In this document: one piece after another, positions 2,040 through 61,916 of the stretch
Layout of the letters: each line of letters opens with the position of its first letter
Numbering within the stretch: position 1 is the stretch's first letter
Assembly: GCA_022706085.1 (NCBI GenBank)
Contig: JAKJDF010000003.1
Span: forward strand, 338,879 to 402,878
Source of the DNA: Candidatus Latescibacterota bacterium
Lineage (GTDB): Bacteria; Latescibacterota; MWCZ01
Reading direction: 5' to 3'
Length of the DNA stretch: 64,000 nucleotides
Position numbers and translations under genes: made by a program
The notes under the pieces: generated by a model
The model's database searches: none
What the model saw: only the letters and a program-made list of their open reading frames with translations
Told to the model about the DNA's origin: nothing

Positions 2040-2252
2040 TTTCCCCTTGCTTCCCGCGTGATATTTCACCTTCCTCGCACATCCCATCCTGTGAGCGCTC
2101 GTTTTGCCACCTGTTTTCGCTGTGGAGCCACGCTCCGCCCCACCCCTGTCTAGCCCCTCGACAAGTCCCGCGTTATTTTCTTTCTCCGTGCAGGCCGTCC
2201 CCGTTTTGCCAGCATTTCCGGGCCGATTTCCCTGATTGATTGAGGAAGCAAA

Positions 2253-4177: not shown

Positions 4178-4270
4178 AACCAGGAACGACGATCTCCTCA
4201 GGGAACACAACAAGGCGTGAGACGGCTATCGGGAAGTTGTTGGCCAAGTTGCAGGGAAGGACTGCTCGAC

Positions 4271-7492: not shown

Positions 7493-9969
7493 CCTGGCCA
7501 CGAGTACTTCTCCAGCTGCAGGCACGGCGAAATGGAGCGGCGCACGAACCCCACGATGACCGCGCGAATACCTGCTCCTGGTCCGGGAAGCACCTTTCCG
7601 GGCAAGTATCAGGCCCGGTTGCTCGGGCCGACGCGAACCTGAAAGGTCAGGAAACTCAGACCGGCCGCGGAAAAGCCACGTTTGCCACGATCCTTGCGCT
7701 GGTGACATTGGTGGTGACATGCGGGCAAACGGGCGCCGCAACGTCGATAAGCGGGTATGTGCGTGAACGTGGCAGCCGGGAAAGCATCCCTTACGTCAGC
7801 GTCTACATTGAAGGGTTGCGTCTGGGTGGCATGACAAACGCGGCGGGTTATTATGTCATCAATGGTGTGCCGCCGGGCCGCCACGTGGTGGTCGCCGCCA
7901 TGATCGGTTACAATGAATCGCGGCAGACGTTGGTTGTCGCCGCGGAACCGCTCGTGCACAACATTGAGCTGTCCACGGAAGCGATTGAAGTTGCGGCAGT
8001 GGAAGTTCAGGCGGAACGCGCCCGGGCCCCTTCGCTCGAGATCATTCCCAGCAGGGAGACGCTTCGCGGTGTGGATCTGAAGATCGCTCCCGCGGCCGTG
8101 GAAGCCGATCCAATCCGGACACTCCATACGCTCCCGGGGGTGGTGCAGCTTTCCGATTTCAACACCGGGTTGTACGTGCGCGGAGGAACGCCGGATCAGA
8201 ACCTGATCCTTGTGGATGGTTCAGAGTTGTACAACGTGTCGCACATGTTTGGTCTGTTCTCGACGTTTCCTGCGGATGCGATCAAAACCACCGAGTTGCT
8301 CATGGGGGGATACCCGGCGCAATACGGTGGCCGGCTTTCCTCCGTGCTCAACGTGATCACGGAGGAAGGGAACAAGGAGCGATTCAGAGGCTCAGGCGGG
8401 GTAAGCCTGCTGAGCTCCCGCATGACATTGCAGGGCCCGTTCGGGAAAGGCTCGTTCCTTGTGTCGGGGCGGCGGACGTACCTGGAGCCAGTGTTCTGGG
8501 CTGCCAGCCGCTCAAGCGATGCGTTCGACGGAATGGGGTATTTCTTCTACGACTTCCAGGGCAAAATACATCAGATTCTTTCGCACTCCGATCAGTTCGC
8601 CATCGCCGGATACATGGGCAAGGACGCGTTCAAATACACCAACGATTTCATGGATACCCGCTTCGACTGGGGAAACAAATCAGTCTCCCTGAGCTGGAAT
8701 CACCTGTTTTCCGGGGAGCTCTACTCTCATGTGCAGGCAAATCTGAGCCGGTTTGTTTCGCACACTACGTTCAAGATAGAGGATTTCGGCGCCACGGATC
8801 ATAACGAGCTCTTCGACACGGATCTCAGGGGTGATCTTACCTGGTTCGCCAACGAGCGGCACACGTTTGAAACCGGCGTTCATATGAAACGAAACACCAT
8901 GCGCTTCGGGCAGGAATATGCCGGACAGAGTTACGAAGCATTCGATCTCATCGCATACGTCCCCAGCGCCTATGTGCAAGATAGCTGGAGACCGTGGCCG
9001 TTCCTCACGGTGCAACCTGGTCTCAGAGGGACGCTCTTCCGAAGCCGGCTCCGAGATACTCCCGAGTCCGCAACCTACTCTGCATTCGAACCACGGTTCA
9101 CCGTGCGCTACCAGCTGGGGGAACAGACCTTTCTGAAGGCGGCCACCGGGCGCTACAGTCAGTTCATTTTCCGCGTGCCGAGAGAATATCAGGGCATCTC
9201 GATGATGTCTGACATCTGGTTCACCTGCGACGACACGCCGGGAGGGTATCCTCAGCGCGCATGGCACTACGTGCTGGGACTGGAAACAAAAATACGGCAC
9301 GATGTCGATTTGTCGCTTGAAGCGTATTACAAGGATTACGCGGGCCTCGTGGAATTCAATGCCTCACAGACCGCCCCGCAGAGCGTCGAAGACGCACTCC
9401 TGAGGGGCGACGGATATGCATACGGGCTTGATGTTAACGTGAAAAAACGAGCCGGCCGAAACACGGGATGGCTGTCATACTCGATGAGTTGGACCGTTCG
9501 AACCATCGACGGACTGAACCTCGACGAGAACGGGAACCCGCAACCATTCTACCCGAAATTCGACGCGAGGCATCATCTGGACGCGGTGTACAGCTTTGAT
9601 CTATCGCGCCACTGGACCCTTAACAGCCGAATGTCATTGTCGTCAGGGCAGGGGTATACGAAAGTTCTCGGACGGTACGTGGTGGAAGATCCTCTGTTCA
9701 CCCAGGGCCTGTACTATCGCGGACAGAAAAACGGGGCCCGGCTGCCGTATTACATGCGCCTCGACGTAGGAGCGAAGGGCAGTTACCGATTCTGGGGAGT
9801 CAGGTGGATGCCGTTCTTCCAGATTGTGAACGTTCTCAATCGCGCGAATGAGTTCAACAGATACTACGACAGCGGCGACGCGGCGAAAGATCCGCCGGAG
9901 ACCGGCCGCGAACGAGTGATCCCCCAGTTGCCGTTCCTTCCAACCTTCGGCGTGGATGTGGAGTTCTGA
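7489..9969 (+). CDS. TonB-dependent outer-membrane receptor with carboxypeptidase-regulatory-like N-domain
   Basis: ISGYVRE...GYYVINGVPPGRH (CarbopepD_reg-like) followed by a plug domain (LYVRGGTPDQNLILVDGSELYN) and a long barrel ending in terminal Phe (GVDVEF). Start taken as the ATG overlapping the upstream stop (ATGA), but about 60 aa precede the hydrophobic signal-like segment, so the start is uncertain. Confidence 0.75.
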   Translation: MTWPRVLLQLQARRNGAAHEPHDDRANTCSWSGKHLSGQVSGPVARADANLKGQETQTGRGKATFATILALVTLVVTCGQTGAATSISGYVRERGSRESIPYVSVYIEGLRLGGMTNAAGYYVINGVPPGRHVVVAAMIGYNESRQTLVVAAEPLVHNIELSTEAIEVAAVEVQAERARAPSLEIIPSRETLRGVDLKIAPAAVEADPIRTLHTLPGVVQLSDFNTGLYVRGGTPDQNLILVDGSELYNVSHMFGLFSTFPADAIKTTELLMGGYPAQYGGRLSSVLNVITEEGNKERFRGSGGVSLLSSRMTLQGPFGKGSFLVSGRRTYLEPVFWAASRSSDAFDGMGYFFYDFQGKIHQILSHSDQFAIAGYMGKDAFKYTNDFMDTRFDWGNKSVSLSWNHLFSGELYSHVQANLSRFVSHTTFKIEDFGATDHNELFDTDLRGDLTWFANERHTFETGVHMKRNTMRFGQEYAGQSYEAFDLIAYVPSAYVQDSWRPWPFLTVQPGLRGTLFRSRLRDTPESATYSAFEPRFTVRYQLGEQTFLKAATGRYSQFIFRVPREYQGISMMSDIWFTCDDTPGGYPQRAWHYVLGLETKIRHDVDLSLEAYYKDYAGLVEFNASQTAPQSVEDALLRGDGYAYGLDVNVKKRAGRNTGWLSYSMSWTVRTIDGLNLDENGNPQPFYPKFDARHHLDAVYSFDLSRHWTLNSRMSLSSGQGYTKVLGRYVVEDPLFTQGLYYRGQKNGARLPYYMRLDVGAKGSYRFWGVRWMPFFQIVNVLNRANEFNRYYDSGDAAKDPPETGRERVIPQLPFLPTFGVDVEF

Positions 9970-10940
9970 TGGTAAGGAGACTCTGGCTTTCGGTCGCGTT
10001 GTTCGTGGTTGTCGCACAATCAGGGTGCATTCTCAATCCGGTCAAACCCGAGAAGAAAAACGTTCCCGAGCTCTTCCTGCAAGGGTTTCTGGTCGCTGGC
10101 GGGCCGATCGACAACATCATTCTCCGGAAGACAATCCCGCCGGAGATGTATTACGACTTCATGCCGCTGGGCAGGTACGCAGTGTCGGGCGCCGAAGTCG
10201 TGATTACCATCGACGGCGTTCCGCACCCGCTCCCAGAACTCCACGCGGGGACGTACGGTGACCCGAACCTGATTGCTCGCTCAGGGGCTACGTGCGAAAT
10301 CGAGGTGCGTTTCCCGGCAAACCACGAATTCGCCGGGCGGAGGTTGCACGGCACCACCACGATTCCAGAAAAGCCGCGTGCATCCGTAACAATTCACCCG
10401 TACTACGTCCAACGGGGAGCTCGTCTCGACGGCAATTCTCTCACCGGGCTCGTGTTTCCGCGCGAACTGTCTTACCCGGATTCTTTCGGCACCACTACGG
10501 AAAAGGAGCCGTTCCGACTTTCATGGCCGATAAGCGCCTCCGCGGCCGGGTACATGGTGGTGTCCACCGCGGTGGATACGCAGGGTACCGGGCTTCTGCG
10601 GCAACGAGATTACGAGGACTATCTTGATGGAAATTTCCGGGACCCCGTGAAGCGCCAGGCCAAGCGGTCAGCGGGATTCTACATTCTTCCCGATTCCTCA
10701 CAGAGCACCGTGTACTGGTTGCTGTTCAGTTACCGCGGTTGGCACGATGTGTCGATTGTGGCGTGCGACAGCGGGTACTGGGATTATATGGTGACGGTGC
10801 TCAATGACGCCGGAACCGGTGCTGATTCGGATGCCGGGGTGAAGCTGAACGTTCAGGGGGGGCTTGGGATTTTCTGTTCGTACGCTGCCGACACGACGCG
10901 TGCGTACATCCAGCCCGAGTGGCTTCCGTCAACCCGTTGA
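9969..10940 (+). CDS. DUF4249-like lipoprotein partner of the TonB-dependent receptor
   Basis: Signal peptide with lipobox (VVAQSG-C). Sits immediately downstream of a CarbopepD_reg TonB receptor with a TGATG overlap, the usual pairing. Confidence 0.55.
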   Translation: MVRRLWLSVALFVVVAQSGCILNPVKPEKKNVPELFLQGFLVAGGPIDNIILRKTIPPEMYYDFMPLGRYAVSGAEVVITIDGVPHPLPELHAGTYGDPNLIARSGATCEIEVRFPANHEFAGRRLHGTTTIPEKPRASVTIHPYYVQRGARLDGNSLTGLVFPRELSYPDSFGTTTEKEPFRLSWPISASAAGYMVVSTAVDTQGTGLLRQRDYEDYLDGNFRDPVKRQAKRSAGFYILPDSSQSTVYWLLFSYRGWHDVSIVACDSGYWDYMVTVLNDAGTGADSDAGVKLNVQGGLGIFCSYAADTTRAYIQPEWLPSTR

Positions 10941-26968: not shown

Positions 26969-27142
26969 TTACTCCAGCGTAATCGCCTCACTTGGGCATT
27001 CGTCTACACAAGCGCCGCAATCCGTGCACTCTTCGGGGTTCACCACTGCCACGTCTTCGTCCATCGTGATGGCTTCGGACGGGCACACTTCCACGCAACT
27101 TCCACAACCAGTGCATTCCTCTTTGTTGACTACTGCAGGCAT
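26969..27142 (-). CDS. 2x[4Fe-4S] ferredoxin
   Basis: Two CxxCxxCxxxCP motifs. AGGAG RBS before the ATG at 27142. Confidence 0.8.
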
Positions 27143-27197: not shown

Positions 27198-28271
27198 CTA
27201 CGCAAAGTTCACAAGTGAGCTATCCCCGAGAACGAATCTATTCTCTGAAGGCATGAGTCGTTCGTGGGTGATCCGGACGTTCTTGCCGATGAGACTCGAC
27301 CCGATACGGGATTTGATACCGGAAATGACGCTTTTCTCCATTATGATGCTGTATTCCACCTCACTCCCTTCTATCGTTACACCCGGCCCAATGGAGGTAT
27401 AGGGTCCTATATATGCGTCACGGATCATCGAACCGGGGCCGACGATGACCGGCCCGCGTATGATGCTTCTTTCAACGACCGCGGAAGACTCGATTACCAC
27501 ACGCCCGACAACGGAAGATTGGCCGTCCACGTTTCCGCGGCACGAAGCCTCGGTGATTTTTTCCAGCAGTAACCGGTTGAGGTCTATCATGTCTTCCGGC
27601 TTACCGGTGTCCTTCCACCACCCTTCCAACATCAGCGGCTGAACCACAAGGTTCCGGGCGATCAGTTCCCGTAATGCATCGGGCAGTTCCAGCTCGCCTC
27701 GGGGGGAGGGCTTCACCTTTCCGATGACATCGAAAATGCACGGCTGGAACACGTAAATACCGGCGACCGCAAGGTTACTCTTGGGTGATTCCGGTTTCTC
27801 TTCGAGACCTACGATTCTCCCATTTTCGATTTCCGCTATGCCAAATTGGTGCGGGTTATCTGTCTTGTGCAGAACGACGACTGACGCCGGGTGGTTTTTT
27901 GCGAATGCCTCCACGACGGAGGTGATACCATTCTCTACGAGGATGTCGCCGAGAACCATCAGAAACGGTGCACCAGCCGCCCAGTCTTGTGCTAACGATA
28001 CAGCATGTGCTGTGCCAAGAGGGTTATCCTGGACGATATAGTCCACCTCGACACCCCAGCGCGAACCATCGCCCACCGCGCCTTCGATTTCGTGCCGGTT
28101 TACCCCGACCACTATGCCGATCTCCGTAATTCCGGCCTTGTGGAGCATTTCGATCGTGTAGTGGATCAGTGGCTTGTTGGCAACCGGCAGAACGTGCTTG
28201 GCCGAGGTGTAAGTGATGGGACGCAATCTGCTTCCCATACCGGCACAGAGGAGCAACCCTTTTTTTAGCAT
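27198..28271 (-). CDS. sugar-1-phosphate nucleotidyltransferase with C-terminal left-handed beta-helix (long-form RmlA/GlmU-like)
   Basis: [14 protein letters not shown]... (G-x-G-T/S-R-L nucleotide-binding signature), then hexapeptide-repeat C-terminus. Confidence 0.7.
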
Positions 28272-28285
28272 TTGGCATCCTTCGG

Positions 28286-28327
28286 CTCTCAGTCGCTGAG
28301 AGACCTCTCTCAGTCGCTGAGAGACCT
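28286..28327. repeat. exact tandem duplication of a 21-nt palindromic unit (CTCTCAGTCGCTGAGAGACCT x2)
   Basis: Two perfect copies. Each unit contains the 7-bp inverted repeat CTCTCAG/CTGAGAG around TCG. The second copy encodes the last 5 codons and stop of the DUF1015 gene. Coordinates +/-1 nt. Confidence 0.8.
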
Positions 28328-29581
28328 CATGACCATACCCGTGAGAGGTTTCGGGCTGAAATACGTGGATTTGTGCGGCATCACGTCACCGGCTTCGGCG
28401 ACCGCCGCAATCTGAGCGGCCGACGGCGCGCGTATCAGAAAAAAGATGTCAGCAGAACCTGATACGACGGCAGAACAGCCGTCCTCCGGGTCGACCGTAT
28501 ATCTGATGTTCACGTCGTTCTCACTCACACCTGCAATACGCTGCAGGATCACCTCGTGCAGGAGAGACACGTCGAGTTTGCGCCAGGCCGGCGACCGTTG
28601 TGGATCTATCCATTCGGCAACGCGTTCCCACGACCGCAACCCGAGAAGAAAAACTCCGTGATTCTTCACCCACATCCCGATTTTATAAGATTCCGCGGTG
28701 TCTACTTTGAGTAATCCTGCGAGATTCGGGCTGGTTGCGCCAATTCTCGTCACCGCGAAATACTCGTCCAGACGGCTGAGAAATCCACCCACGTCAAACG
28801 ATGGTGGAAACGTCACGACCCGGTGCGGAGGCAGAATAGTAAGGTTCGGGTCATCGCTGGAGCAAAGATACACCATCAATGACTCCGCCGCCCCTCGGAT
28901 ACCCATGGCGCGCTGCTGGTCGCGAAAGCGTATCGCTGTCTCGTACCGATGGTGCCCGTCAGCGATGATAAGTGGGTACCGGCGTACTACTTCCGCAACT
29001 CGCCTGATGTCGCCAGTATCGGTTACCCGCCACATCCTGCTCGTGCCGCCGGCGGTTTGAGCCTCTGCGTCAGGTGGAGCACTTGCGACGCGTGCGTACG
29101 TTCCGCCAAGTTCGTCCGTCGGGTCGCGATAAAGCAGGAAGACGGGACTCAGGTTGGCGAGCGTCTCCTCCATGAGGCGGAGTCGGTCCGCCTTCGGTCC
29201 GGCGAACGTCCGTTCGTGTGGCAACACTGACCCCTTGCCGATTTCTTCCAGTACAAGCGCCCCAATAAAACCGCGCCTGACGGCAGGTTTGCCCGAGGGC
29301 GTCACGTACCGCTCCTCGAGGAAGTACAACGCCGGGGCGGGGTCACGCACCAGAACTCCCGATTCCCTCCATCTGCGCCAGAGGCTTCCCGCATAGCGAT
29401 ACTTCGCGTCTCCATCTCCGATCGGCAGGTCAATCCGCACCACATTGAACAGGTTTTTTGAGAGAAGGTGTGCGCGTCCTTCGGGAGTGATGACGTCGTA
29501 CGGGGGTGCAACGACTGTCTCCAGCGCTCCAACCTTTTCACTGTTATAGCGGATGCCCCGAATTGGGTTGATGATCGCCAC
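28310..29581 (-). CDS. DUF1015 family protein
   Basis: ADGHHRYETA motif and overall DUF1015-like sequence. GTG start overlapping the ispG stop. Confidence 0.65.
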   Translation of the reverse strand: MAIINPIRGIRYNSEKVGALETVVAPPYDVITPEGRAHLLSKNLFNVVRIDLPIGDGDAKYRYAGSLWRRWRESGVLVRDPAPALYFLEERYVTPSGKPAVRRGFIGALVLEEIGKGSVLPHERTFAGPKADRLRLMEETLANLSPVFLLYRDPTDELGGTYARVASAPPDAEAQTAGGTSRMWRVTDTGDIRRVAEVVRRYPLIIADGHHRYETAIRFRDQQRAMGIRGAAESLMVYLCSSDDPNLTILPPHRVVTFPPSFDVGGFLSRLDEYFAVTRIGATSPNLAGLLKVDTAESYKIGMWVKNHGVFLLGLRSWERVAEWIDPQRSPAWRKLDVSLLHEVILQRIAGVSENDVNIRYTVDPEDGCSAVVSGSADIFFLIRAPSAAQIAAVAEAGDVMPHKSTYFSPKPLTGMVMRSLSD

Positions 29582-30717
29582 TAGGAAATCCTTCCCTCCA
29601 CCCGTGCCTTTTCAATTTCTTCGAACAGCGCAGACACCAGTTCCTCTTCTTTGACTCGCCTCACGACCGCACCGTCGCGGTACACCAGTCCGACGCCCTT
29701 GCCACCGGCAATGCCAAAGTCCGCTCCCTGAGATTCACCCGGCCCGTTAACCACACACCCCATGACCGCGACCCGAAATGACTCCGAGTACTTCTCCAGA
29801 CGGCGTTCCACTTCCTGAGCGATGCTGATCAGGTCAATCTCGACGCGGCCGCAGGTGGGGCAGGAAATCAGCGTCGGGCCTTTCACTCGCAGTCGCAGCG
29901 CTTTCAGGATATCAAACCCGACGGCGACTTCCTTGACCGGGTCATCGGTCAGAGAAACGCGTATCGTATCCCCGATGCCTGCCGCCAGGATAGCGCCGAT
30001 GCCGACCGCGGAAGCGATTGAACCGGTTTTCGCCGTTCCGGCTTCCGTGATGCCCACATGCAGAGGATAGGGGCGCTCTCTGGAAAAATCGGTATAGGCC
30101 GCGATCGCCATCGGAACGTCCGACGCCTTGAGCGATACCACGATGTCGTGAAATGACAGATCCTCAAGTATTCGGACGTGACGCAACGCGCTTTCTACCA
30201 GTCCGGCGGCCGTCGGGTACCCGAATCTCTCCAGAATATCCTTTTCCAGCGAACCCGCGTTGACTCCGACCCTGATAGGGATCCCGCGCTCCGAACATGC
30301 GCTTGCCACGCGTTCGACAGACTGCCGCGTACCGATGTTACCCGGGTTGATACGAAGCTTGTCCACTCCCTGCTCCACCGCCACCAGAGCAAGACGGTGC
30401 CCGAAATGGATATCGGCGACGAGAGGTATCGGAATCTGTCTCCGGATTTCCCCGAGCGCAAGCGCGTCCGCTTCATGCGGGACCGCAACCCTGACAATCT
30501 CACAACCGGCGGCCGCAAGGGCGTTAATCTGTCGGACGGTGGCGTCTATGTCTCGCGTGTTTGTGGTGCACATGGACTGAACCGTCACAGGCGCGCCACC
30601 GCCAATATGTACCCCACCGACCGAAACGCGATGCGTTGCGGTCCGAGGGGTAAACGGCTTCACGTGAGAACAGGCGCCGTCACCCAGCTGCCCGGAATCA
30701 GTGTTCTCGTGTGCCAT
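29581..30717 (-). CDS. ispG: 4-hydroxy-3-methylbut-2-enyl diphosphate synthase (GcpE)
   Basis: VQSMCTT, TIM-barrel GcpE core, C-terminal 4Fe-4S cysteines (CPTCGR...GCVVNGPGE). Confidence 0.9.
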
Positions 30718-30858: not shown

Positions 30859-33800
30859 TCAGAACACCGCGTTGAATTCCGCCCTTGCAGTGTGCATCAA
30901 TCGTGTCCCTGCATTCCGACGTGCGGAATAGGAAACAGACAGTGTGGCGAGAGAGGAAAGGCGATAGCTGGCCAGCACTGACGCTCGGAAATTGTGGCCC
31001 CCGTTCCTGCCGTTGAGCAGGTGGACCGGAAGCATTCTATTGGGTGTTCCGTTGTGCACAAAAACTCCCGACCATTGCGCTGACGTACGCATCACGCCGC
31101 GATTTCCCCACGACTTGCGCCACGCCGGTTCAAGGCTGACGACATACGCTCCCAGCGGCTTGCCCTGAACACTGCCGTACGCCGCGGCGGGAACGCCATC
31201 CTTGCCTGCACCCACTTCGTTCCGCAGGGAGAACTCATCGAACGACGAATTCCGGTACGTGATGGATTGATCGAGCCAGCTTCTCCGCACGGAGTAATCC
31301 TGATTGCTCCCACTTCTCAAATCGCTCTGCCACTTGAGCTCTGCGGTCCAATCCGTTCCGGGGCGCACCCTGAGTCTTCCACGAACCGAGTAGTCTTTCT
31401 GGTTCGTCACCGCCGGCACGCCGGCGCGGGAATACAGTGCAGCGTCATAATCTTCATACGCCATGACGCGGAACCGCAGGTCTCCCGCCCACGATGGGTC
31501 CCGGAAAAGCAGGTCCTGGGTTACGCGCACCGAACCTCGCAGGGTCGGAGATTTGCCCGCTTTTCGAAACGTCCACAGCTTCAGGAGGTAAAGATCACTC
31601 GTACGCGCGGTGTCGGTTTCGCTGATCAGAACGTTCGTCTCTGTACCCACTACCCTGATCGCTCGTTGCCACAACGGACGAATCTCGTTTGTCCTCGGAT
31701 TCGCCGCTCCTTTCCACAGACGATTGAAATCGGTGTTCATCTGCCACGCCGCGTCCAACGTCACCGTCGGACTGAAGTCGTCCGTGTCTCGGTACCGGAG
31801 AACGTAAGAAGCGGCCGGATCGCCAGCGGGCGCGATGACAACCTCTGTTTCAGCGAGGATCGCACGGGTGTCGTTCGGGTCAATCGGTGCGTAGTCGCCG
31901 CGGCCGGCACCGACGTAGAGAAACAGGCGCTCACGTTTCGCTGTTCGAGTTGAAGCGACGCGGTAGCGAAACGCATTTCGTACGCCGCCACCGAGAGCTT
32001 CATGGCGGATATCCACGTCAGCGTTGTCGGAAACGGTGCCGCCCCCACCGGCGAAATTCTGGCGTTTTCGCCACGCATATTCAGCCGTACTGGACAGACC
32101 TTTCCAGGAGCGCACGGCGCCGCGCCACGTCTGCGTATAGGATCGCTGCTGGCGGACCCAGCTCCCGAACAGGCTGTCGTATACGCTGTTGTACCGCGAT
32201 TGGACCTCCGCGGAGATGGCGAAATGTTCTGTCTCGGACATTGCAAGTCCCGCCGACCAGTCCTGGAATCTCGTTCCGTAGAGACGTTCGCGAGGGCTAT
32301 TCCGTGTGTCCTGTTCACCTTCCCATTTCGCCGAAGAAGTTACGTGGAAAACAGGGGTTTTGACTTCCGCTCGGCCCCTGTAGATATCACCGGAGGTCAC
32401 AGAACCATGTACCGGGCTGATGCTCATGGCGATCTTCTCACCAGTAACGCGTACGGCGGGCATGTGGTCGCCCGTGGTGCGCCACGACAGGCCGGTTCGC
32501 CGCGCCGTGTGCCCGTCGCGTTCGGCAAGGCGGTTTCGTTCCAACCAGCCGATGTCCCAGTCCAGCGTGTGGCTTTGTACCGGGTTGTACGTAAGCGCCA
32601 CTTCTCCGGTAGTCTCCTGTTCTCTGTTCTCGTCCACGCCGAGGCCCCAGCGCCGGTTGTCGTAGGGGTCTATGGTCCGATACAGAGCCCCAAAACCTTC
32701 GTCGACTTTCCTGCCTTTCGCGCGAACGTTGACCGAACCGAATCGGCCGTCCCGGGGGGCCAGGCGCGTTTCGATGGAGATCGTTCCCGCAAAGCGCGTG
32801 TTATCTTCGTCATCGGCACGGGAAATGACGTTTTTGTCGATATCGCTCATCGCGGCTTCGCATTCCAGCTGGAAGTTGTTCGCCGGCCGGTATGTCGTCC
32901 ACAGAGACGCAAGCCGTGTGCGTTGCGGGAGCGGGTAGGTGATTCGCGGGACCCAGTCGCCATTTCCCTGGCCCACGTAGACCATGTCCTGTTCGAAGTA
33001 TCCCTGTCTCCGGATGTAAGATCCTTTCCCCGGGCCGACGCGCGTGAACATCACGTCATACTCGCCGCTGTCGGGAGTCGTTTTTACGAAGTACTCAGTG
33101 TTCGGGTCAACGAGGCGGTACCCGCCGCCGGGTTGATACGACCAACCGGGCCGCGATGCCCGCGCGGGATCGTCTCCGGCGGCAGCCAGTATTGCTCTGG
33201 CAGTGTCATCCATTTCTACACCGAACGACTCGCCGGTATCGTCGCCTTCCTGAACGAAAAACACGCGTGTCTGCCACTCTCCGCGGCGCTGTCCATCCTG
33301 CGCATATGCGGACAGAAGCGTTGTCGTTCGTGCGTACGATTCGCTCGAATACTCGTAGTCTACGACCACTTCCATGTCATCCCGCAGAAGCCATTTGCGC
33401 GTAAACGTGAGCTCACCGGCCGAATAGTCTATCGTGTAATCGTTCGGTTCGCCCCGGACAAGCAGTCTGCCATCTATCCACACTCGTTCGGTTCCCGCAA
33501 TAACCACGATGCCCGCATTGCCGTTTTTGTCGGTCAGACGGTAAGGTCCCTGATTGCCGTCAATTACAGGAAGATGGAGACTGCGAAACTCGCCCCGCGT
33601 GGTGGCGATCCCTGCGGAGGCACCCCATCGATCGAAGGACGCCGCACCCATGGCCCCGTCCAGCCGCCGGGAAAAACGGCCGAATTCCCCGACGTCATTC
33701 CTGGCGTCGAATGAACCGAGCAGCGCACGATAGTGGGGGCTTTTGATCTCCACCAGAACCTTGTCAATCTCTTGCAGTTCCTGCGTTGTTCCCTCCGGTT

Positions 33801-34428
33801 GAATTGGCAGGTTCTGGTCGCTCAATTCCGCCGTAACGGTAACATTTTCGGCGACGGTACCGTTGATGCTGACGCGAAGCGACTGCTCCAGAGTGAGATC
33901 GCGTCCCGAACCTACCTGCACCGCGAAGGTCTTGTTTCCGCCGATTCGCAGGTTGCTTTCGGGCAACGGCTGGCGGCGCGCAAGCGCGGACGTGCGGGGC
34001 GCGCCGATCGTATCTCGCGCCACCGAGTCCAGTTGCGCCGGTCGCAACCATCGCTGTCGTACGGGCCAGTCCGCAGGAATTCTGCGATAACGGATGACGA
34101 CCTCGGCGCCGGGCGGCAACGGTCTCAGGAAGACGACGCGTCGATGATCGTAGTCCACCGCGAAATCTTTCCCGGAGATTAGCCCACCATCCGACGTCTC
34201 CACTTCCACGGAATCGCGCACGAGCACCACTTCGGGAAGCAAGACCGCGATCGTCTCAGCGGCCGGCACGTTCCACACAAACTGTTCCCAGCCGGATTTC
34301 AATTCCCCCGCAACGACGGATCCATTCGCACGCAGGATCAACATGCTCGCGAAAATGGCTAGCAAACCTGCGCGAGGAGTCCGCCACGGGCGGACGGGTG
34401 ACCGGACTCTCCGGTTCTTCGCGCGCAT
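30859..34428 (-). CDS. very large secreted protein, predicted outer-membrane beta-barrel, unknown function
   Basis: 1189 aa from the ATG at 34428 (Arg-rich n-region, hydrophobic core AGLLAIFASMLIL, then LRA-NG). Rich in Tyr/Trp/Arg amphipathic beta-strand-like segments; C-terminus ...RAEFNAVF ends in aromatic Phe as in OM barrels. No recognisable family. Alternative starts at 34344 (ATG) and 34545 (TTG). Confidence 0.55.
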   Translation of the reverse strand: MRAKNRRVRSPVRPWRTPRAGLLAIFASMLILRANGSVVAGELKSGWEQFVWNVPAAETIAVLLPEVVLVRDSVEVETSDGGLISGKDFAVDYDHRRVVFLRPLPPGAEVVIRYRRIPADWPVRQRWLRPAQLDSVARDTIGAPRTSALARRQPLPESNLRIGGNKTFAVQVGSGRDLTLEQSLRVSINGTVAENVTVTAELSDQNLPIQPEGTTQELQEIDKVLVEIKSPHYRALLGSFDARNDVGEFGRFSRRLDGAMGAASFDRWGASAGIATTRGEFRSLHLPVIDGNQGPYRLTDKNGNAGIVVIAGTERVWIDGRLLVRGEPNDYTIDYSAGELTFTRKWLLRDDMEVVVDYEYSSESYARTTTLLSAYAQDGQRRGEWQTRVFFVQEGDDTGESFGVEMDDTARAILAAAGDDPARASRPGWSYQPGGGYRLVDPNTEYFVKTTPDSGEYDVMFTRVGPGKGSYIRRQGYFEQDMVYVGQGNGDWVPRITYPLPQRTRLASLWTTYRPANNFQLECEAAMSDIDKNVISRADDEDNTRFAGTISIETRLAPRDGRFGSVNVRAKGRKVDEGFGALYRTIDPYDNRRWGLGVDENREQETTGEVALTYNPVQSHTLDWDIGWLERNRLAERDGHTARRTGLSWRTTGDHMPAVRVTGEKIAMSISPVHGSVTSGDIYRGRAEVKTPVFHVTSSAKWEGEQDTRNSPRERLYGTRFQDWSAGLAMSETEHFAISAEVQSRYNSVYDSLFGSWVRQQRSYTQTWRGAVRSWKGLSSTAEYAWRKRQNFAGGGGTVSDNADVDIRHEALGGGVRNAFRYRVASTRTAKRERLFLYVGAGRGDYAPIDPNDTRAILAETEVVIAPAGDPAASYVLRYRDTDDFSPTVTLDAAWQMNTDFNRLWKGAANPRTNEIRPLWQRAIRVVGTETNVLISETDTARTSDLYLLKLWTFRKAGKSPTLRGSVRVTQDLLFRDPSWAGDLRFRVMAYEDYDAALYSRAGVPAVTNQKDYSVRGRLRVRPGTDWTAELKWQSDLRSGSNQDYSVRRSWLDQSITYRNSSFDEFSLRNEVGAGKDGVPAAAYGSVQGKPLGAYVVSLEPAWRKSWGNRGVMRTSAQWSGVFVHNGTPNRMLPVHLLNGRNGGHNFRASVLASYRLSSLATLSVSYSARRNAGTRLMHTARAEFNAVF

Positions 34429-34541
34429 CCGCAGGGTCGTCGGCGCAAACCGGCGATTACGTGCGACAGGATGGGTCTGGGAGAGGGACGAGCCGCGGCG
34501 CAGCCATCCGGCGGGATGCAGAAAGGGCGCGGTGTTCGACG

Positions 34542-35039
34542 TCAAAGGACCAGTTGCTTGAACGTATCCGAGCCAAGTGCGACGAAAAATGGCGGTTCAA
34601 ATCCTGCCATGCGAACGTACACGGAGAGCTTGCCGTTGTGGTTGTTGGTGTGATCGCGCATGAAAATGAGGATCTGCGCCGGAGTGGCCTCGAATCCCCA
34701 CGGCGTCAGAACGGGAGCATGGAGGCGGTGAAAACTGATCGATCGAGCAAGCGAAATCACTTCGTCTCGAGTCTGGAGAAGGAGGTTCCAGAGCGCTGTC
34801 CGGCCGGGGTAGTCGTCAGGTGAAAACCCTTCCGATTCAAATGCCCAGCCCTGGCCTGCGGCACCGAGTGCCATCCCCCGTTCCACGGATGCGATATGCA
34901 CTATCTGTTCGCGGAACGAGCGCACCGCGGGCGATGGACGGAAGTCAATGTGTTCTTCCGGCATTGCTTCGACCATGCCGATAGAGACGTCGTGGACTAT
35001 TTCATACAGCGGGAGAAAAACACGATCCGCAAACTGCAT
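34542..35039 (-). CDS. DinB-like (DinB_2) metal-dependent hydrolase family protein
   Basis: 165-aa C-terminal portion of the track ORF starting at the ATG at 35039, with His-containing helices (EQIVHIASVERG, HRLHAP). The rest of the long track ORF is antisense to the SDR gene. Confidence 0.5.
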   Translation of the reverse strand: MQFADRVFLPLYEIVHDVSIGMVEAMPEEHIDFRPSPAVRSFREQIVHIASVERGMALGAAGQGWAFESEGFSPDDYPGRTALWNLLLQTRDEVISLARSISFHRLHAPVLTPWGFEATPAQILIFMRDHTNNHNGKLSVYVRMAGFEPPFFVALGSDTFKQLVL

Positions 35040-39119: not shown

Positions 39120-39278
39120 TAAAAACTCCTTAAGGTACATAAACGCCGCCGGGGAATGGGTGCCGTCGGATTTGGAGAAAAAGTCCGCCCGTGGCAAGGA
39201 TTAAAATGTACCGTTTGCGCCACTTGCTTCGCAAGGCGAAACTCAAGGATGCGCCGCATCGGCAGACCTGAGAGCGTG

Positions 39279-40154
39279 TTATCTGAGGTGCAGGTCCGCA
39301 AGCATCCGGAAGAGGTTATCGAGGCAGACGCGCGTGGCGTACTCGCCTTCCTTGCTGAAGGCAGCCCCGCCGGGTCGGTTCAGCTGTTCTTCGTCGAGGG
39401 CTGTCGGTCTCCAGTGGGTTTCGAGCGACACGAACCCATCGTAACCGTCGGCGACAAGTGCAGCGAACTGGGAGCGGTAATCCACAAGTCCTTCCCCGAT
39501 TGGGACACACCGGGGTTCGTTCTTCGCCGGGTCCCGCAGCGCGTCCTTGAGATGCATGTGGCGCATCCTGTGCTTCACCGCCTCGTATCCGTCGGGGAAC
39601 GGGATTTCCCTGTCCTCGTCGTCGTAGATGCAATTTGCCGGGTCCCACATTGCGGCAACCCGGTCCGCGTTGAGATCGCCCAGAAATCTCGCGAGGCGCC
39701 TGCCGGTTCCGACCATCGTGCTTGCTTCATTCTCAATGGCGAGGGTCTTGTCGTATTTTTCAAGAAGGGTAAGTGGCTCGGCAAAAGCGGTCAGTATATC
39801 CTGCCAGTGGTTTTCCACGGGCGTTTCGCGCCAGAACGTGAATCCCCTGATAATCGAGCACTCGAGAGCGTCGGCGAGACGGGCACACCGCTCGAGAATC
39901 AGAATGTGTTCTTTTCGTTCCTCGGCGTTGCCCAGATGGCATTTGAAAAAGGGGGACGCTATGCTGGCCACCTTGAGGCCGGTTCCCTTCAGGATTTCCC
40001 GAACTTCGCGGATATCCCGGTTATCAAGTTGTTGAGGGGGTTTGTCCCAGACCGAGCGTATTTCGACGCCATCGAGACGGTACTCCGACGCAACGGCTAC
40101 CGCTCGTTCAAAGTCCTGCGAAATCTCATCCGTGAAAACCGACAGCTTGAACAT
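39279..40154 (-). CDS. sugar phosphate isomerase/epimerase (xylose-isomerase-like TIM barrel)
   Basis: 291-aa portion from the ATG at 40154 with TIM-barrel isomerase-like blocks. The upstream 94 codons of the track ORF look non-coding. Confidence 0.6.
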   Translation of the reverse strand: MFKLSVFTDEISQDFERAVAVASEYRLDGVEIRSVWDKPPQQLDNRDIREVREILKGTGLKVASIASPFFKCHLGNAEERKEHILILERCARLADALECSIIRGFTFWRETPVENHWQDILTAFAEPLTLLEKYDKTLAIENEASTMVGTGRRLARFLGDLNADRVAAMWDPANCIYDDEDREIPFPDGYEAVKHRMRHMHLKDALRDPAKNEPRCVPIGEGLVDYRSQFAALVADGYDGFVSLETHWRPTALDEEQLNRPGGAAFSKEGEYATRVCLDNLFRMLADLHLR

Positions 40155-40278
40155 ACGGGTTATCCCTTCAGGTGGCGAAAGTTTTCTGCTGTTACCCGGC
40201 AGGGCTTTGCGCGGCTTGTGAAAAAGTATACGCGGGTCGCGGAGATATGAACAACCACATCCGTTCGGACGAAGAACC

Positions 40279-42945
40279 GTGACTTCTCGAAGTCGTTTGC
40301 CACGAGCAACCGTATCGCAGCTTGAACGGATTGTCGGACGTGGTTTCGTGATCGTGGACGAAGCCCTGCTGCAACTGCACGCCGAAACCAGAGGCAGCGA
40401 TTCCGTCCGCCCGGTGGCAATTCTGCTACCCTCCACGGATGAGCAGGTTTCTCAACTTTTTCGCCTGCTCGGGAGAGAGGGGCTTGGTGCTTCGGTGCGC
40501 GGCGGTGGCTCCGGTCTGGTCTGGGGGGCACTCCCACACGACGCGGTCACAGTAATCAGCACCGCGCGGATGAACACACCCCTGCGAATTGTTCCGGAAC
40601 AGATGAATGTCACTGCGGGGGCAGGAGTGCGGATAGAGGAAATCGCTGCCGGCGTGGCTGCACACGGATTCCGACTTTGTGGCGGAATGGACATGCCCCC
40701 GTTTGCCACGGCAGGCGGATTTGTCGCGAGAAACGGGGATGGTTACGGTGGACCCTTAGGGCTCGCAGATGGCCTCTTGTCCGGAATCAGGTGCGTTTTC
40801 GCGTCGGGTGACATCGTCTCGTCTTCCAAGTCGGGTTTCAGCGGACCGCTCGATCTGCACGGGTTCGCCGTGGGGTCGGAAGGGACCCTTTGTGTCGTCA
40901 CCGAGGCGACGTTTCGCCTGGAACCCGCGCCGCCGAGAGAAGTGATTGTGGTGGCGTTGTTTCGGGACGTGGTTGCCGCAACCGTCGCCGGTGTGGGTCT
41001 GTTCAAGACGGGGTTCTTACCGGACAGCGCGGACATTATCGCCGCAGAAGCCATTCGAGGGGCTCTGGCGGGCGAAGCGGCGGCAGCCGCAGGCGCGGCG
41101 TTGCTGGTCTCTATCTCCGGTGGTGAGCAGGACGTGGAGGACGGTGCGCAATGGGTATCGGGTATCTGCCATGATTTCCTCGCGATGCAGGCTCTCGTGA
41201 CTGAGAACCGGCAGAGGCAAGAGATAGCGAATTGCTGGCGTTCCGCGCAGCGCCAGTTCTGCTCGCCTCATGGCGGTGTGCTTGCGGATTTTTCCTGCCC
41301 GCTGGCGGCTCTTCCGGAGCTGACGGGATATGCCCTGGGGCAGGCGCGGGAGTACGGAGTTGTCCTGTCTGGAATGGTCAGGGTGGCTTCTGAGTGTCTT
41401 TGGATGCATGGTGCAGCGAAACAGGGCGAGGAGGCAAAAGAACAGGCTTTCGCGGCGCGGCTTCAGGAGAAGGCGTTGGCGCTGAAAGGGAGCGCTCTTG
41501 CCGCGCACGGTGTTGGAGCGCGACGACTGGATTTGTTGCCGTCGCTGCACCGAGAGGCCGATCTGGACGCGATGAGACGTATCGATGCGGTGTTTGACAA
41601 GGACGCCATTTTGTCTCTTTCCCTCCCGCAGGCACGAAGCGCGGAACGGCGTGACATTGTTGCACGCAGGAGGCGTGAGGAAGAGGTCAGGGTACTCAAG
41701 GCAAAAACAGCGGAGATTACCAGCAAGGCATCGCTTGGCGCTCTTGCTGAGTCGTTGGCCGTCCCGGCACCGGAGGTATTGGGCTTACTGGTGCGGTCGG
41801 CGAGGGAACGAGGCATCGTGCTTTCAATAAACGGGTTTCCTCGCGGCGCTTCCCTCGACCTCGACACTTCAGGTCTGAACAAGGTCGTGCTCTCCGACAA
41901 CACAAGCAGAGTAGTTGTCGCGGAGGCAGGGATTGCTCTGAATGACCTGGCCACCCATCTCGCCGCCAACGGGCTGTGGTTCCCCGGGTCACCCTACGTC
42001 GACGGCGCCATTCGTCTCGGGGATTTTCTTGCCTGGGAGACTGAGGGCGGGTTTGCGCCGGGGTACGGGAGAATGTACTCGCGGGTCCTCGGGCTGGAGG
42101 CGGTTACGGGTCGCGGAGACGTGATGTCCTGGGGCGGGATGGTTCGCATGCAACATGCTGGATTGCGACTTTCTGAACTTTGCCTCGGGAAGCGGAACCG
42201 GTACGCGATCATCACCGCAGTTGCGTTGCGTGTCGCGGTTACTCCCGCCACCAGGCAGTGCGTAGTCGCGTCTTACGACAATATCGCGGCCGCGTCGAGC
42301 TTCGCTCGCCTCGCGCTGCGGGGAGGGCAAGGGAGTTCAGGGCACCTTGCCCCTCGCGCGGTAGCCCTTTTCAATGGTCCGCCAGGTAGTGGTCGCTCGG
42401 GAGAAGGTGTCTCTGTGGTCGTGGAGTTTTCGGGAACCTCTTCCTCCGTGGCGGGACACGTGAACCGTGCGACGGTACTGGCGGCCGTGGAGGGAGCGGA
42501 CCACATTACTTCCCACGAAGACAAGGCGTGCGAAGGCCTCTGGAGACGTATCGCAGAACGGTACAGCCCCGTGCCGGACGCCGTCAACGACGAAAGTCTG
42601 AAGCTGGTTTTGACTACCCCACCGGACACGCTCGGGTTCTGCCTTGACCATATTTCTCGCGCCTGTTCACGCCGCGGGCGCAGATGTGAGTATGTTGCCG
42701 ATGCGCTGGCTGCGCGGGCAGACGTTGTTGTCCCGAACGGGGTATCGGTGGCTCCCGAGATTCTGCGGGAACTGGACGAGAATCTGACGGAGACGCCCGC
42801 AAGGATCGAGGTGTTTTCCCGGCATGAAGGCCTGCAGGAATTCATGCAGAACCAAGGACAGCCTCCGCTGGCGGAGGAACTTAAACAGCAGTTCGACCCG
42901 AGCGGGATACTGCCTTCCGGCCGTCTCCCCGCGATCGGCAGATGA
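40279..42945 (+). CDS. tandem-duplicated FAD-linked oxidase (two FAD_binding_4 + FAD-oxidase_C units in one 888-aa chain)
   Basis: First unit PSTDEQ...GGGSGLVWGA ... DAVFDKDAILS; second unit VVAEAGIALNDL...GLWFPGSPY ... QQFDPSGILPSGR. GTG start. Confidence 0.6.
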   Translation: MTSRSRLPRATVSQLERIVGRGFVIVDEALLQLHAETRGSDSVRPVAILLPSTDEQVSQLFRLLGREGLGASVRGGGSGLVWGALPHDAVTVISTARMNTPLRIVPEQMNVTAGAGVRIEEIAAGVAAHGFRLCGGMDMPPFATAGGFVARNGDGYGGPLGLADGLLSGIRCVFASGDIVSSSKSGFSGPLDLHGFAVGSEGTLCVVTEATFRLEPAPPREVIVVALFRDVVAATVAGVGLFKTGFLPDSADIIAAEAIRGALAGEAAAAAGAALLVSISGGEQDVEDGAQWVSGICHDFLAMQALVTENRQRQEIANCWRSAQRQFCSPHGGVLADFSCPLAALPELTGYALGQAREYGVVLSGMVRVASECLWMHGAAKQGEEAKEQAFAARLQEKALALKGSALAAHGVGARRLDLLPSLHREADLDAMRRIDAVFDKDAILSLSLPQARSAERRDIVARRRREEEVRVLKAKTAEITSKASLGALAESLAVPAPEVLGLLVRSARERGIVLSINGFPRGASLDLDTSGLNKVVLSDNTSRVVVAEAGIALNDLATHLAANGLWFPGSPYVDGAIRLGDFLAWETEGGFAPGYGRMYSRVLGLEAVTGRGDVMSWGGMVRMQHAGLRLSELCLGKRNRYAIITAVALRVAVTPATRQCVVASYDNIAAASSFARLALRGGQGSSGHLAPRAVALFNGPPGSGRSGEGVSVVVEFSGTSSSVAGHVNRATVLAAVEGADHITSHEDKACEGLWRRIAERYSPVPDAVNDESLKLVLTTPPDTLGFCLDHISRACSRRGRRCEYVADALAARADVVVPNGVSVAPEILRELDENLTETPARIEVFSRHEGLQEFMQNQGQPPLAEELKQQFDPSGILPSGRLPAIGR

Positions 42946-57230: not shown

Positions 57231-57319
57231 AGCGAATCTCCTGACGAGCACTGATGTCTTACGCTGAAGCGGCTTGCAGGCCGCTGGTTTTCAATTGCAG
57301 TCCAAATTCCTCTGTGTTC

Positions 57320-61893: not shown

Positions 61894-61916
61894 TGCGTTC
61901 CCTCCGGTCTGAGGTT

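Follow-up and report, generated by a model that had tools for sequence, protein, structure and literature searches.

The 64,000-nt stretch of Candidatus Latescibacterota DNA analysed here (the window) encodes a 1189-aa protein that structural models predict to be a β-barrel of the outer membrane, with about 40 strands and a greater width than any solved barrel. In the reading that we favour, to which we give a probability of about 0.5, the protein is secreted and forms a single barrel that serves as a gated large-bore channel or sheath, with an NHL-repeat protein and an Omp85 protein as likely partners. The protein belongs to a large family confined to the FCB superphylum.

Identification of the gene and its family

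The coding sequence runs on the minus strand from an ATG at 34428 to a stop codon at 30859-30861 (30859..34428, stop codon included), as defined by the ORF list, the translation and the homologues, and it matches the 1189-aa ORF of the first-pass annotation. The features of this gene described below are also on the minus strand. The frame is open further 5′: a TTG at 34545 (34543..34545), which has a 4-nt overlap with the stop of the upstream DinB-like gene, would give a 1228-aa product with the same stop. In two metagenome contigs belonging to the same species, gene callers picked this TTG. It would add 39 residues ahead of the signal peptide; with the ATG, the signal peptide is normal and the start agrees with that of homologues.

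A word-indexed search revealed 919 homologues, and an exhaustive profile search revealed 5131 clusters at 50% identity. Because of these numbers, the ORF is, on sequence grounds, not a chance frame. Family members are about 1100-1200 aa long and were found in at least 585 species genomes, all from FCB (Fibrobacterota-Chlorobiota-Bacteroidota) lineages, including KSB1, Zixibacteria, Latescibacterota, Calditrichota and Ignavibacteriota. Ignavibacterium album is a cultured carrier (IALB_1764); a literature search found no paper mentioning IALB_1764.

No Pfam match passed the E = 0.005 threshold, and the 1189-aa protein has no curated family. A Pfam/NCBIfam scan gave no POTRA/Omp85, LptD, Plug/TonB-dependent receptor, autotransporter or TamB/AsmA signal. 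The first-pass annotation had been unable to place the protein among BamA/TamA, LptD, SprA, TonB-dependent receptors or autotransporters, and these scans left it equally unplaced, the only trace being a 26-bit local match to SprA in NCBIfam. A TonB-dependent receptor was rejected in the absence of any Plug or 22-strand TonB_dep_Rec match in Pfam at E ≤ 1. LptD was rejected because there was no OstA/LptD match in Pfam or NCBIfam and the domain at the N-terminus duplicates an insert domain described below. The protein itself has no POTRA or Omp85 matches in Pfam or NCBIfam, which argues against BamA/TamA (Omp85). An autotransporter had no Pfam match, and the strands span aa 159 to 1189 rather than forming a C-terminal 12-strand domain with a passenger. 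Direct counting bore out the reported abundance of Trp, Tyr and Arg (R 10.8%, Y 3.7%, W 2.8%).

The neighbouring genes ispG/GcpE (29581-30717), DUF1015 (28310-29581), NTP_transferase (27198-28271) and a 2x[4Fe-4S] ferredoxin gene (26969-27142) are all on the minus strand, in the co-orientation noted earlier. Whether homologues also neighbour ispG had been raised as a question; the arrangement was confined to the same species, and none of 86 loci in other species had it. The window also contains a genuine TonB-dependent receptor (7237-9969), which matches Plug in Pfam.

Structural models and strand covariation

Two AlphaFold2 models, of different members and from different alignments, had pLDDT 84.1 and 85.4 and pTM 0.70 and 0.72. 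Their architectures agree: a signal helix is followed by a small N-terminal β domain and then by 40 long antiparallel strands, and strand 8 leads into an inserted second copy of the small domain. The predicted structure is thus a meander of long antiparallel strands and neither a soluble β-solenoid nor a propeller. In each of two Foldseek runs, the best 50 PDB matches were all outer-membrane β-barrels. SprA chains came first in both (E = 1.6e-10 and 6.9e-10). TM-scores were low (0.22-0.30), and SprA was only marginally ahead of 22-strand receptors and other large barrels; the fold match is therefore generic.

Strand pairing was evaluated by mean-field covariation on 453 sequences. Covariation supported 36 of the 39 sequential antiparallel pairings (median z 5.5), across both inserts. 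An alternating hydrophobic/polar 9-residue stretch was present in 29 of the 40 strands, consistent with the β-strand-like segments described in the first-pass annotation. Loops after odd strands of the models were longer than those after even strands (p = 0.005 and 0.011), an alternation that fits periplasmic turns versus extracellular loops. Covariation between strand 1 and strand 40 was not significant (z = 1.25-1.47, rank 63 of 703). The best N-terminal partner window of strand 40 was residues 165-175, within strand 1 (z = 2.8); other windows were nearly equal. The outer-membrane barrel proposed earlier is thus supported by the models, the barrels among the Foldseek matches, the loop lengths and the terminal Phe. 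Its closure is weakly indicated: the models and the literature suggest it, and our own covariation does not demonstrate it. The protein would be located in the outer membrane.

Domain organisation

Seven Arg and one Lys are present within the first 19 residues of the N-terminus, MRAKNRRVRSPVRPWRTPRAGLLAIFASMLILRANGS, and in a hydropathy analysis no other 19-residue segment of the protein is as hydrophobic as residues 22-40. An Arg-rich n-region followed by a hydrophobic signal, as recognised in the first pass, is evident from these features. The signal peptide (aa 1-34; 34327..34428; sequence and hydropathy) has the hydrophobic core AGLLAIFASMLIL, and residues 21-34 form a helix in the AlphaFold2 model. 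Judging from the sequence, cleavage is likely near LRA/NG.

The signal peptide is followed by a small β domain (aa ~44-120; 34069..34299) with short strands and pLDDT 86-91, which by the topology of the models would be periplasmic. By hhalign (probability 98.3%, E = 1.3e-14), this domain is a homologue of the one inserted between strands 8 and 9. A linker (aa ~121-158; 33955..34068) has low confidence, with pLDDT < 50 at residues 124-156; the second model has the same low-confidence linker at residues 118-150.

Strands 1-8 (aa 159-286; 33571..33954) were assigned by DSSP on the model, and pairs 1-2 to 7-8 had covariation z of 6.5, 4.6, 9.4, 4.1, 4.9, 2.4 and 1.6. The most conserved motif of the family, AELSDQNLPIQPEGTTQELQEIDKV (aa 200-224; 33757..33831), runs from the end of strand 3 through a loop into the beginning of strand 4. 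A200, L202, D204, P208, Q210, P211, G213, E220, D222 and V224 are invariant in aligned homologues. The loop is poorly modelled, with pLDDT < 50 at residues 206-220, and at 200-214 of P0121.

The insert domain (aa ~287-353; 33370..33570), identified by hhalign against the N-terminal domain as copy 2 of the small β domain, has the motif GNQGPY...AGTERVWIDG..RGE.NDYTIDY..GE.TFT. It overlaps a stretch (aa 310-361) that matches phage distal-tail families in Pfam/NCBIfam. Strands 9-11 (aa 354-401; 33226..33369) follow in the model; pair 8-9, across the insert, had z = 5.5 and pair 10-11 had z = 4.4. A second insert (aa ~402-502; 32923..33225) consists of one helix (408-417) and a small β domain with short strands (425-497), and is predicted by strand parity to be extracellular. 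Covariation links strands 11 and 12 over this insert (z = 10.2).

Strands 12-40 (aa 503-1189; 30862..32922) were evident from both models, covariation and the alternating hydrophobic pattern. Sequential pairs in this region mostly had z of 4.3-11.3, except for pair 14-15 (1.6), and the models place a helical periplasmic insert at aa ~901-924. Strand 40, MHTARAEFNAVF (aa 1178-1189; 30862..30897), carries a β-signal. The C-terminus reads ...HTARAEFNAVF, and F1189, the C-terminal Phe already pointed out in the first pass, is present in every aligned homologue of two sets (66/66 and 40/40). Conservation of H1179 and A1187 reaches at least 90%, and the alternating hydrophobic pattern of this strand scores 0.88 vs 0.23.

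Gene neighbourhoods in other lineages

Of 85 loci, 46 have an NHL-repeat gene directly upstream on the same strand, and 39 have an Omp85 gene directly downstream, also on the same strand. The NHL protein is an exported six-bladed propeller. The Omp85 protein is BamA-like (TIGR03303, 193-245 bits, model positions 147-726); it is below the BamA cut-off of 297 bits, lacks the first two POTRA domains and has three POTRA domains. Its scores were 48-53 bits against TamA (cut-off 625) and 24-26 bits against TamL (cut-off 400). In four loci, the trio of NHL, barrel and Omp85 genes follows rplM-rpsI-rpsB-tsf-pyrH-frr; the rpsB-tsf-pyrH-frr region is the position of the bamA cluster in many bacteria. 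Neither partner gene was found in the 64-kb window, in Ignavibacteria loci or in I. album. The two are therefore not obligatory neighbours.

Proposed function of the barrel

We propose that the exported protein would insert in the outer membrane as a single barrel of about 40 antiparallel strands. Its two homologous small β domains would be periplasmic, one ahead of strand 1 and one following strand 8; the further insert and several longer loops would face outward. Because such a barrel would be too wide to stay open, a gated large-bore channel or sheath is proposed, and a folded protein would cross the outer membrane through it or sit in it. The conserved motif, in a loop that the models leave unplaced, is probably folded into the lumen as a gate, or may bind a partner. 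The NHL six-bladed propeller is a candidate plug or passenger, and the BamA-like Omp85 may be a dedicated insertase or a co-channel; these partners are not adjacent in the lineage of the window itself.

A wider proposal is more tentative. The family may be the core of an unrecognised outer-membrane machine of FCB candidate phyla, in which a ~40-strand barrel, the largest single-chain one, together with a dedicated BamA-like Omp85 and the NHL propeller, would transport or accommodate folded proteins without relying on the T9SS. The invariant LTDQNTPIQPEG loop would then be a gate or partner site.

The housekeeping setting of the gene bears on a different explanation, which we consider unlikely: a structural giant barrel that is not a transporter, but an abundant scaffold or non-specific pore tying the outer membrane to envelope layers. 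The 30-strand SlpA of Deinococcus has such a tethering role, and SlpA/SDBC structures (8ae1, 7zgx, 8agd) were among the Foldseek matches (TMq 0.20-0.22); however, the likeness to SlpA was no better than that to many other barrels. The gene lies among housekeeping genes in most lineages, in the four loci above directly after frr, and this setting suggests a constitutive envelope component. The two periplasmic domains could anchor such a barrel to the cell wall, but no SLH, OmpA-like or other peptidoglycan-binding domain was found in Pfam. The strictly conserved loop motif and the recurrent propeller/Omp85 pairing argue for a specific interaction rather than a passive role.

Relationship to SprA and the type IX secretion system

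SprA/Sov (PDB 6H3I, 6H3J, 8GL6, 8GL8; TIGR04189) resembles the present protein in being a single-chain giant barrel restricted to FCB lineages, and in having a small β domain detectable by sequence. However, SprA/Sov has about 2300-2400 aa, 36 strands and a large extracellular cap, whereas the present protein has 1189 aa, 40 modelled strands and no cap. A stripped-down SprA/Sov, i.e., a T9SS translocon or paralogue with a barrel but without the roughly 150 kDa extracellular cap, would agree with the top rank of SprA in both Foldseek runs and with the confinement of both families to the same superphylum. TIGR04189 was matched by 24 of 40 diverse members (best E = 6.4e-9). In the 1189-aa protein, however, this match is limited to 65 residues (aa 307-371) that overlap the small insert domain and scores 26.1 bits (E = 1.1e-6) vs a cut-off of 200. 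Ten fragments from the rest of two members gave no SprA match even at E ≤ 10, and family profiles searched against PDB sequences gave no SprA chain at E ≤ 10. The small insert domain also matches phage distal-tail families; it is therefore a shared module, and a match to it is no evidence that the barrels are homologous.

T9SS cargo genes (Por_Secre_tail) occur near family members in two loci (L001 and L004), and a TPR lipoprotein gene lies upstream in the clade of the window, its product having a weak likeness to PorW/SprE among many other TPR families. However, T9SS core genes, such as those for PorV, Plug or PorW, are not conserved neighbours across the 85 loci, and none was present among the scanned window ORFs. 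A survey whose species included Ignavibacterium album and Caldithrix abyssi reported SprA proper from FCB phyla, with the exception of Chlorobiota (PMC12611786). The present family occurs in I. album; it coexists with canonical SprA at least at the phylum level, and probably in I. album itself. Taken with the difference in strand number and the halved length, these findings make a reduced SprA improbable, more so than a structural barrel.

An open, TamB/AsmA-like, periplasm-spanning β groove docked on Omp85, which would move lipids or nascent outer-membrane proteins, is the least probable explanation: the size of about 1150 aa, all-β content and N-terminal hydrophobic helix resemble TamB, a three-POTRA Omp85 gene adjoins the gene in loci that have no separate TamB-sized gene, and our covariation test did not demonstrate closure, but TamB/DUF490 and AsmA signals were absent in Pfam and NCBIfam, the adjoining Omp85 is BamA-like rather than TamA or TamL, the best 50 structural matches were all closed barrels with no groove-type proteins, many members (that of the window included) have no Omp85 neighbour, and an integral barrel is in keeping with the invariant terminal Phe, the alternation of short with long loops and the even number of strands.

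Discussion

The 40-strand barrel that we favour has a probable counterpart in the literature. Solan, Pereira, Lupas, Kolodny and Ben-Tal (PNAS 2021) predicted a "large single barrel" superfamily that includes 40-strand and 38-strand families (PMC8346858). Their family 002 comprises 1194 proteins, for which a barrel-closing contact and no fewer than 40 predicted strands were reported, and its structural homologues are a fragment of 6H3I_A (SprA) and 6R2Q_B (MtrB) (PMC8346858). In our two Foldseek runs, 6h3i_A ranked 3 and 5 and 6r2q_B ranked 33 and 11 (HHpred was used in that study). Matched on strand count in the models and on structural homologues, the present family is probably the 40-strand large single barrel. 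Both are large families of uncharacterised proteins; that study did not assign a function to its 40-strand family, dissect its domains or describe its phyletic range or gene neighbourhood.

In LptD-LptE, MtrB-MtrA and SprA with Plug or PorV, the barrel lumen is filled or gated by a separate protein encoded in an adjacent gene. LptD and MtrB are among the Foldseek matches of the present protein; however, unlike those systems, it has no LptD/OstA sequence match and no multihaem partner. In contrast to plug-and-barrel systems, the candidate partner here is an NHL propeller, encoded adjacently in about half of the loci, which by analogy may occupy the lumen. BamA/TamA and BamB offer another parallel, since KSB1-type loci likewise pair a BamA-like Omp85 (downstream) with an exported β-propeller (upstream). 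The BamB propeller is eight-bladed and PQQ-like, whereas that found here is of NHL type with six blades.

The 36-strand SprA continues to be named as the largest barrel known (bioRxiv 2026.03.07.710327). A 40-strand barrel formed from only about 1150 residues would be a new size limit, and it would raise the question of how a BAM-type machinery closes such a sheet. Many little-studied phyla (KSB1, Zixibacteria, Latescibacterota, Calditrichota, Ignavibacteriota) have the family as a core gene, yet Pfam and NCBIfam contain no model for it, and thousands of genomes therefore label it "hypothetical protein". Ignavibacterium album IALB_1764 provides a cultured handle on it. The recurrent pairing of the giant barrel with a truncated BamA paralogue and a propeller offers a concrete hypothesis that can be tested, namely that of a dedicated assembly or co-channel module.

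Gene and start codon

The minus-strand open frame runs from a TTG at 34545 to the stop codon at 30859-30861. Within it, the ATG at 34428 yields exactly the 1189-aa product that the first-pass annotation had proposed (window 30859-34428, minus strand), here termed the giant barrel protein. The start is ambiguous over 34428-34545 (minus strand): the TTG, which would give 1228 aa, overlaps the stop codon of the upstream DinB-like gene by 4 nt and is where gene callers began the gene on two conspecific metagenome contigs. On sequence grounds the ATG is more likely to be the start, because a normal signal peptide results and homologues begin there. A consensus scan around the gene found neither promoter-like sites (0) nor a minus-strand terminator ahead of ispG.

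The N-terminus of the protein, MRAKNRRVRSPVRPWRTPRAGLLAIFASMLILRANGS, is strongly basic, and the most hydrophobic stretch of the whole chain follows, as expected from the Arg-rich n-region and hydrophobic signal described earlier. The composition (Arg 10.8%, Tyr 3.7%, Trp 2.8%) bore out the richness in Trp, Tyr and Arg. The C-terminal Phe of the ending ...RAEFNAVF, which had been taken as a mark of outer-membrane barrels, was found to be invariant in the aligned homologues (66/66 and 40/40).

Predicted structure

AlphaFold2 models were built for the window protein with its family alignment (A1) and, independently, for the best representative of the family (P0121) with a different alignment (A3). 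The two models were confident (pLDDT 84.1 and 85.4; pTM 0.70 and 0.72) and had identical architecture, all of it encoded on the minus strand. An N-terminal signal helix is followed by a small beta domain (aa ~44-120, window 34069-34299), a disordered linker, and 40 long strands of 7-26 residues each that reach the last residue. Three inserts interrupt the strands: strand 8 is followed by a small beta domain (aa ~287-353, window 33370-33570), strand 11 by a helix and beta element (aa ~402-502), and strand 28 by a short helical segment.

The top 50 Foldseek matches in the PDB were exclusively outer-membrane barrels in both runs. Chains of SprA, the 36-strand type IX secretion translocon, came first (E = 1.6e-10 and 6.9e-10); TonB-dependent receptors, SusC, MtrB, LptD, FimD and Deinococcus SlpA were close behind. 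TM-scores for SprA were low (0.22-0.30), and the match is therefore to a fold class and to no particular family. The presence of SlpA among these matches would accord with a structural scaffold comparable to that protein; many other barrels in the list match equally well, and we consider the scaffold reading unlikely.

Family assignment and resemblance to SprA

The first-pass annotation could place the protein in no known family, and no curated family was found to cover it in Pfam, NCBIfam or PDB sequences. Pfam gave a sub-threshold DUF2460 match alone (aa 310-361). The NCBIfam model for SprA/Sov, TIGR04189, scored 26 bits against a cut-off of 200 and was confined to aa 307-371, a segment that also had weaker matches to phage distal-tail and tail-tube families. 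PDB sequence searches with the protein or the family profile gave no match, and no SprA chain appeared at E ≤ 10 with the whole protein, the family profile, the insert segment or the insert-domain profile. Assignments to TonB-dependent receptors, LptD, Omp85, autotransporters and TamB were rejected on family-membership criteria. Among the homologues listed as matches, all 240 of 240 lacked a precomputed Pfam domain, and those named by their source were called "hypothetical protein".

The insert that follows strand 8 is a homologue of the N-terminal domain (hhalign probability 98.3%, E = 1.3e-14), indicating an internal duplication; by strand parity, both copies lie in the periplasm. This repeated small domain is the sole SprA-like part of the protein. 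It has weak matches both to SprA and to the phage distal-tail/tail-tube families DUF2460, TIGR02217 and NF052337. Among 40 diverse members, 24 matched TIGR04189 and 12 matched the distal-tail family TIGR02217; in the window protein both matches fall inside the repeated domain. When ten fragments from the rest of two members were compared with NCBIfam, no SprA match was obtained even at E ≤ 10. SprA is specific to the Fibrobacterota-Chlorobiota-Bacteroidota (FCB) superphylum, in which Chlorobiota is the only phylum without it, according to a survey that took in I. album and C. abyssi (PMC12611786, Nature 2025). Canonical SprA therefore coexists with the giant barrel family, at least at the phylum level. 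A reduced SprA-type translocon would account for the leading Foldseek matches and the shared small domain; set beside the absence of SprA matches in the rest of the protein, this reading appears improbable.

Strand topology and a conserved loop

In a mean-field covariation analysis of 453 aligned members (effective number 340), 36 of the 39 antiparallel pairings between consecutive strands were supported at z > 2 (median z 5.5), and an analysis with 334 sequences agreed. Covarying pairs spanned both inserts (strands 8-9, z = 5.5; strands 11-12, z = 10.2) and bridged long loops (pairs 27-28, 28-29 and 29-30). Loops were longer after odd-numbered than after even-numbered strands (medians 7 and 4; p = 0.005 and 0.011 in the two models), as would be expected for external loops and periplasmic turns. 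In a window scan, 29 of 40 strands had a 9-residue stretch in which, across the family, hydrophobic positions alternate with non-hydrophobic ones; the first reading had noted alternating aromatic/polar beta-strand-like segments.

Covariation thus supports a sequential meander of strands at the sequence level; closure is not among the features that it supports, with z = 1.25-1.47 between strands 1 and 40. When strand 40 was compared with residues 40-300, the best antiparallel window was 165-175, in strand 1 (z = 2.8), and others were nearly equal. An open TamB-like groove would fit these closure values; set against exclusively barrel matches in the top 50 and the rejected TamB assignment, it is very improbable. 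The 40-strand models, the Foldseek matches and the covariation-backed topology together upheld the earlier interpretation as an outer-membrane barrel.

Conservation in the family peaks in the motif AELSDQNLPIQPEGTTQELQEIDKV (aa 200-224, window 33757-33831, minus strand), which has ten invariant positions and is also written LTDQNTPIQPEGTTQ.LQEIDKV. It comprises the end of strand 3 and then mostly loop, with pLDDT < 50 in both models. Such strict conservation where the models cannot place the chain suggests a putative partner-binding or gating element, and the motif is a candidate functional site.

Distribution

A 66-member profile found 5131 clusters at 50% identity, 2519 of them at E ≤ 1e-30, and members were almost all 1100-1200 aa long. 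Relatives are encoded in at least 585 species-level genomes, the best 80 of which belong to KSB1, Zixibacteria, Latescibacterota, LCP-89, Zhuqueibacterota, Calditrichota, Cloacimonetes, Ignavibacteria/Ignavibacteriota and Bacteroidota-labelled MAGs. This large family is confined to lineages of the FCB superphylum; it has a cultured representative in IALB_1764 of Ignavibacterium album JCM 16511. Among the matches listed, the members closest to the window protein were 43-53% identical. PurL of the source organism was just 56-59% identical to its nearest named relatives, several of which are KSB1, Latescibacterota or Calditrichaeota.

The window also holds a GH32 fructan hydrolase (4217-5863) and a SusC-like TonB-dependent receptor with CarboxypepD_reg and Plug domains (within 7237-10940, plus strand), followed by a weak, sub-threshold DUF4249 match (25.6 bits; cut-off 28.5). 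We interpret this group as resembling a polysaccharide-utilisation unit of the sort typical of FCB bacteria.

Gene neighbourhood

The co-oriented downstream genes named in the first-pass annotation were found: ispG/GcpE, DUF1015, an NTP-transferase and a small 2x[4Fe-4S] ferredoxin. The link to ispG did not hold: comparison of homologue neighbourhoods revealed that the ispG-DUF1015 arrangement is confined to the same species. It therefore carries no functional information, and we reject a functional connection with ispG/DUF1015.

Neighbour genes were clustered over 85 loci. In 46 of them the gene directly upstream on the same strand encodes an NHL-repeat propeller of ~310 aa that has a signal peptide and, in some cases, a lipobox; in 39 the gene directly downstream encodes an Omp85 of ~590 aa with three POTRA domains. 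The Omp85 scored 193-245 bits against TIGR03303 (cut-off 297; model positions 147-726 of 741). It is BamA-like as judged by these profile scores, and TamA or TamL identity was ruled out by the NCBIfam comparison. The propeller-barrel-Omp85 trio occurs in KSB1, Zixibacteria, LCP-89 and Calditrichota-type genomes (loci L014, 5921-12071, and L015, 2181-12387; also L001, L002, L004 and L005), in four loci directly after rplM-rpsI-rpsB-tsf-pyrH-frr. A small protein of ~130-180 aa with no Pfam match (cluster c7) often precedes the propeller.

Ignavibacteria and Bacteroidota-labelled loci have housekeeping neighbours (DUF4412, Ogt, UvrD, BrkB and carboxyltransferase, or YkuD and SpoU), and IALB_1764 stands alone. 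In the clade of the window, a gene for a ~560-aa TPR lipoprotein (lipobox VIGC) lies upstream of the barrel gene in three relatives, immediately so in L003 (8312-9991) and L006 (5126-6820); in NCBIfam the lipoprotein best matches generic TPR families, and a weak match to PorW/SprE is among the hits. No NHL, Omp85 or TPR homologue was found within the 64-kb window.

Elsewhere in the window, the N-terminal third of a 1094-aa protein (58636-61920, minus strand) holds propeller repeats of the PQQ/BamB-like and FG-GAP kinds; the rest of the chain carries no assignment. An 888-aa protein (40279-42945, plus strand) has two FAD_binding_4 stretches and one FAD-oxidase_C; it exceeds the usual length of a glycolate or lactate oxidase subunit and could be a fusion. 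Three ORFs had no Pfam match at the thresholds used: 504-2501 (minus, 665 aa), 39156-40250 (plus, 364 aa) and 56370-57251 (minus, 293 aa).

Discussion

The protein is very probably a Sec-exported, BAM-type outer-membrane barrel of ~40 strands; the probability that we assign, about 0.85, refers to the barrel itself. The best-supported form of this reading includes two docking domains in the periplasm and a conserved loop for gating or for a partner. The lumen of such a barrel would have to be occupied or gated. Because of its size and the recurrent propeller and BamA-like neighbours, we propose that the barrel could be a gated large-bore channel or a sheath for a folded protein, with the Omp85 acting as a dedicated insertase or co-channel and the NHL propeller as a plug or passenger. 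This mechanism is wholly inferred, and we hold its chances to be about even.

Solan et al. (PNAS 2021; PMC8346858) used contact maps to predict a "superfamily of large OMBBs" (OMBB, outer-membrane beta-barrel), "larger than any OMBB reported", which contains families of 40 and 38 strands. The supplement to their preprint describes a 1194-member "large_single_barrel" family of at least 40 strands with a clear barrel-closing signal and gives its PDB homologues as "6H3I_A fragment-6R2Q_B". Since both the number of strands and the pair of structural neighbours agree with ours, the giant barrel family is probably their 40-strand family or a sister of it. Our literature search found no paper on IALB_1764 or on the family motif GNQGPY, and a 2026 preprint (bioRxiv 2026.03.07.710327) still calls SprA the largest known barrel. 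The giant barrel family is distinct, very widespread and uncurated, and it widens the known size range of single-chain barrels.
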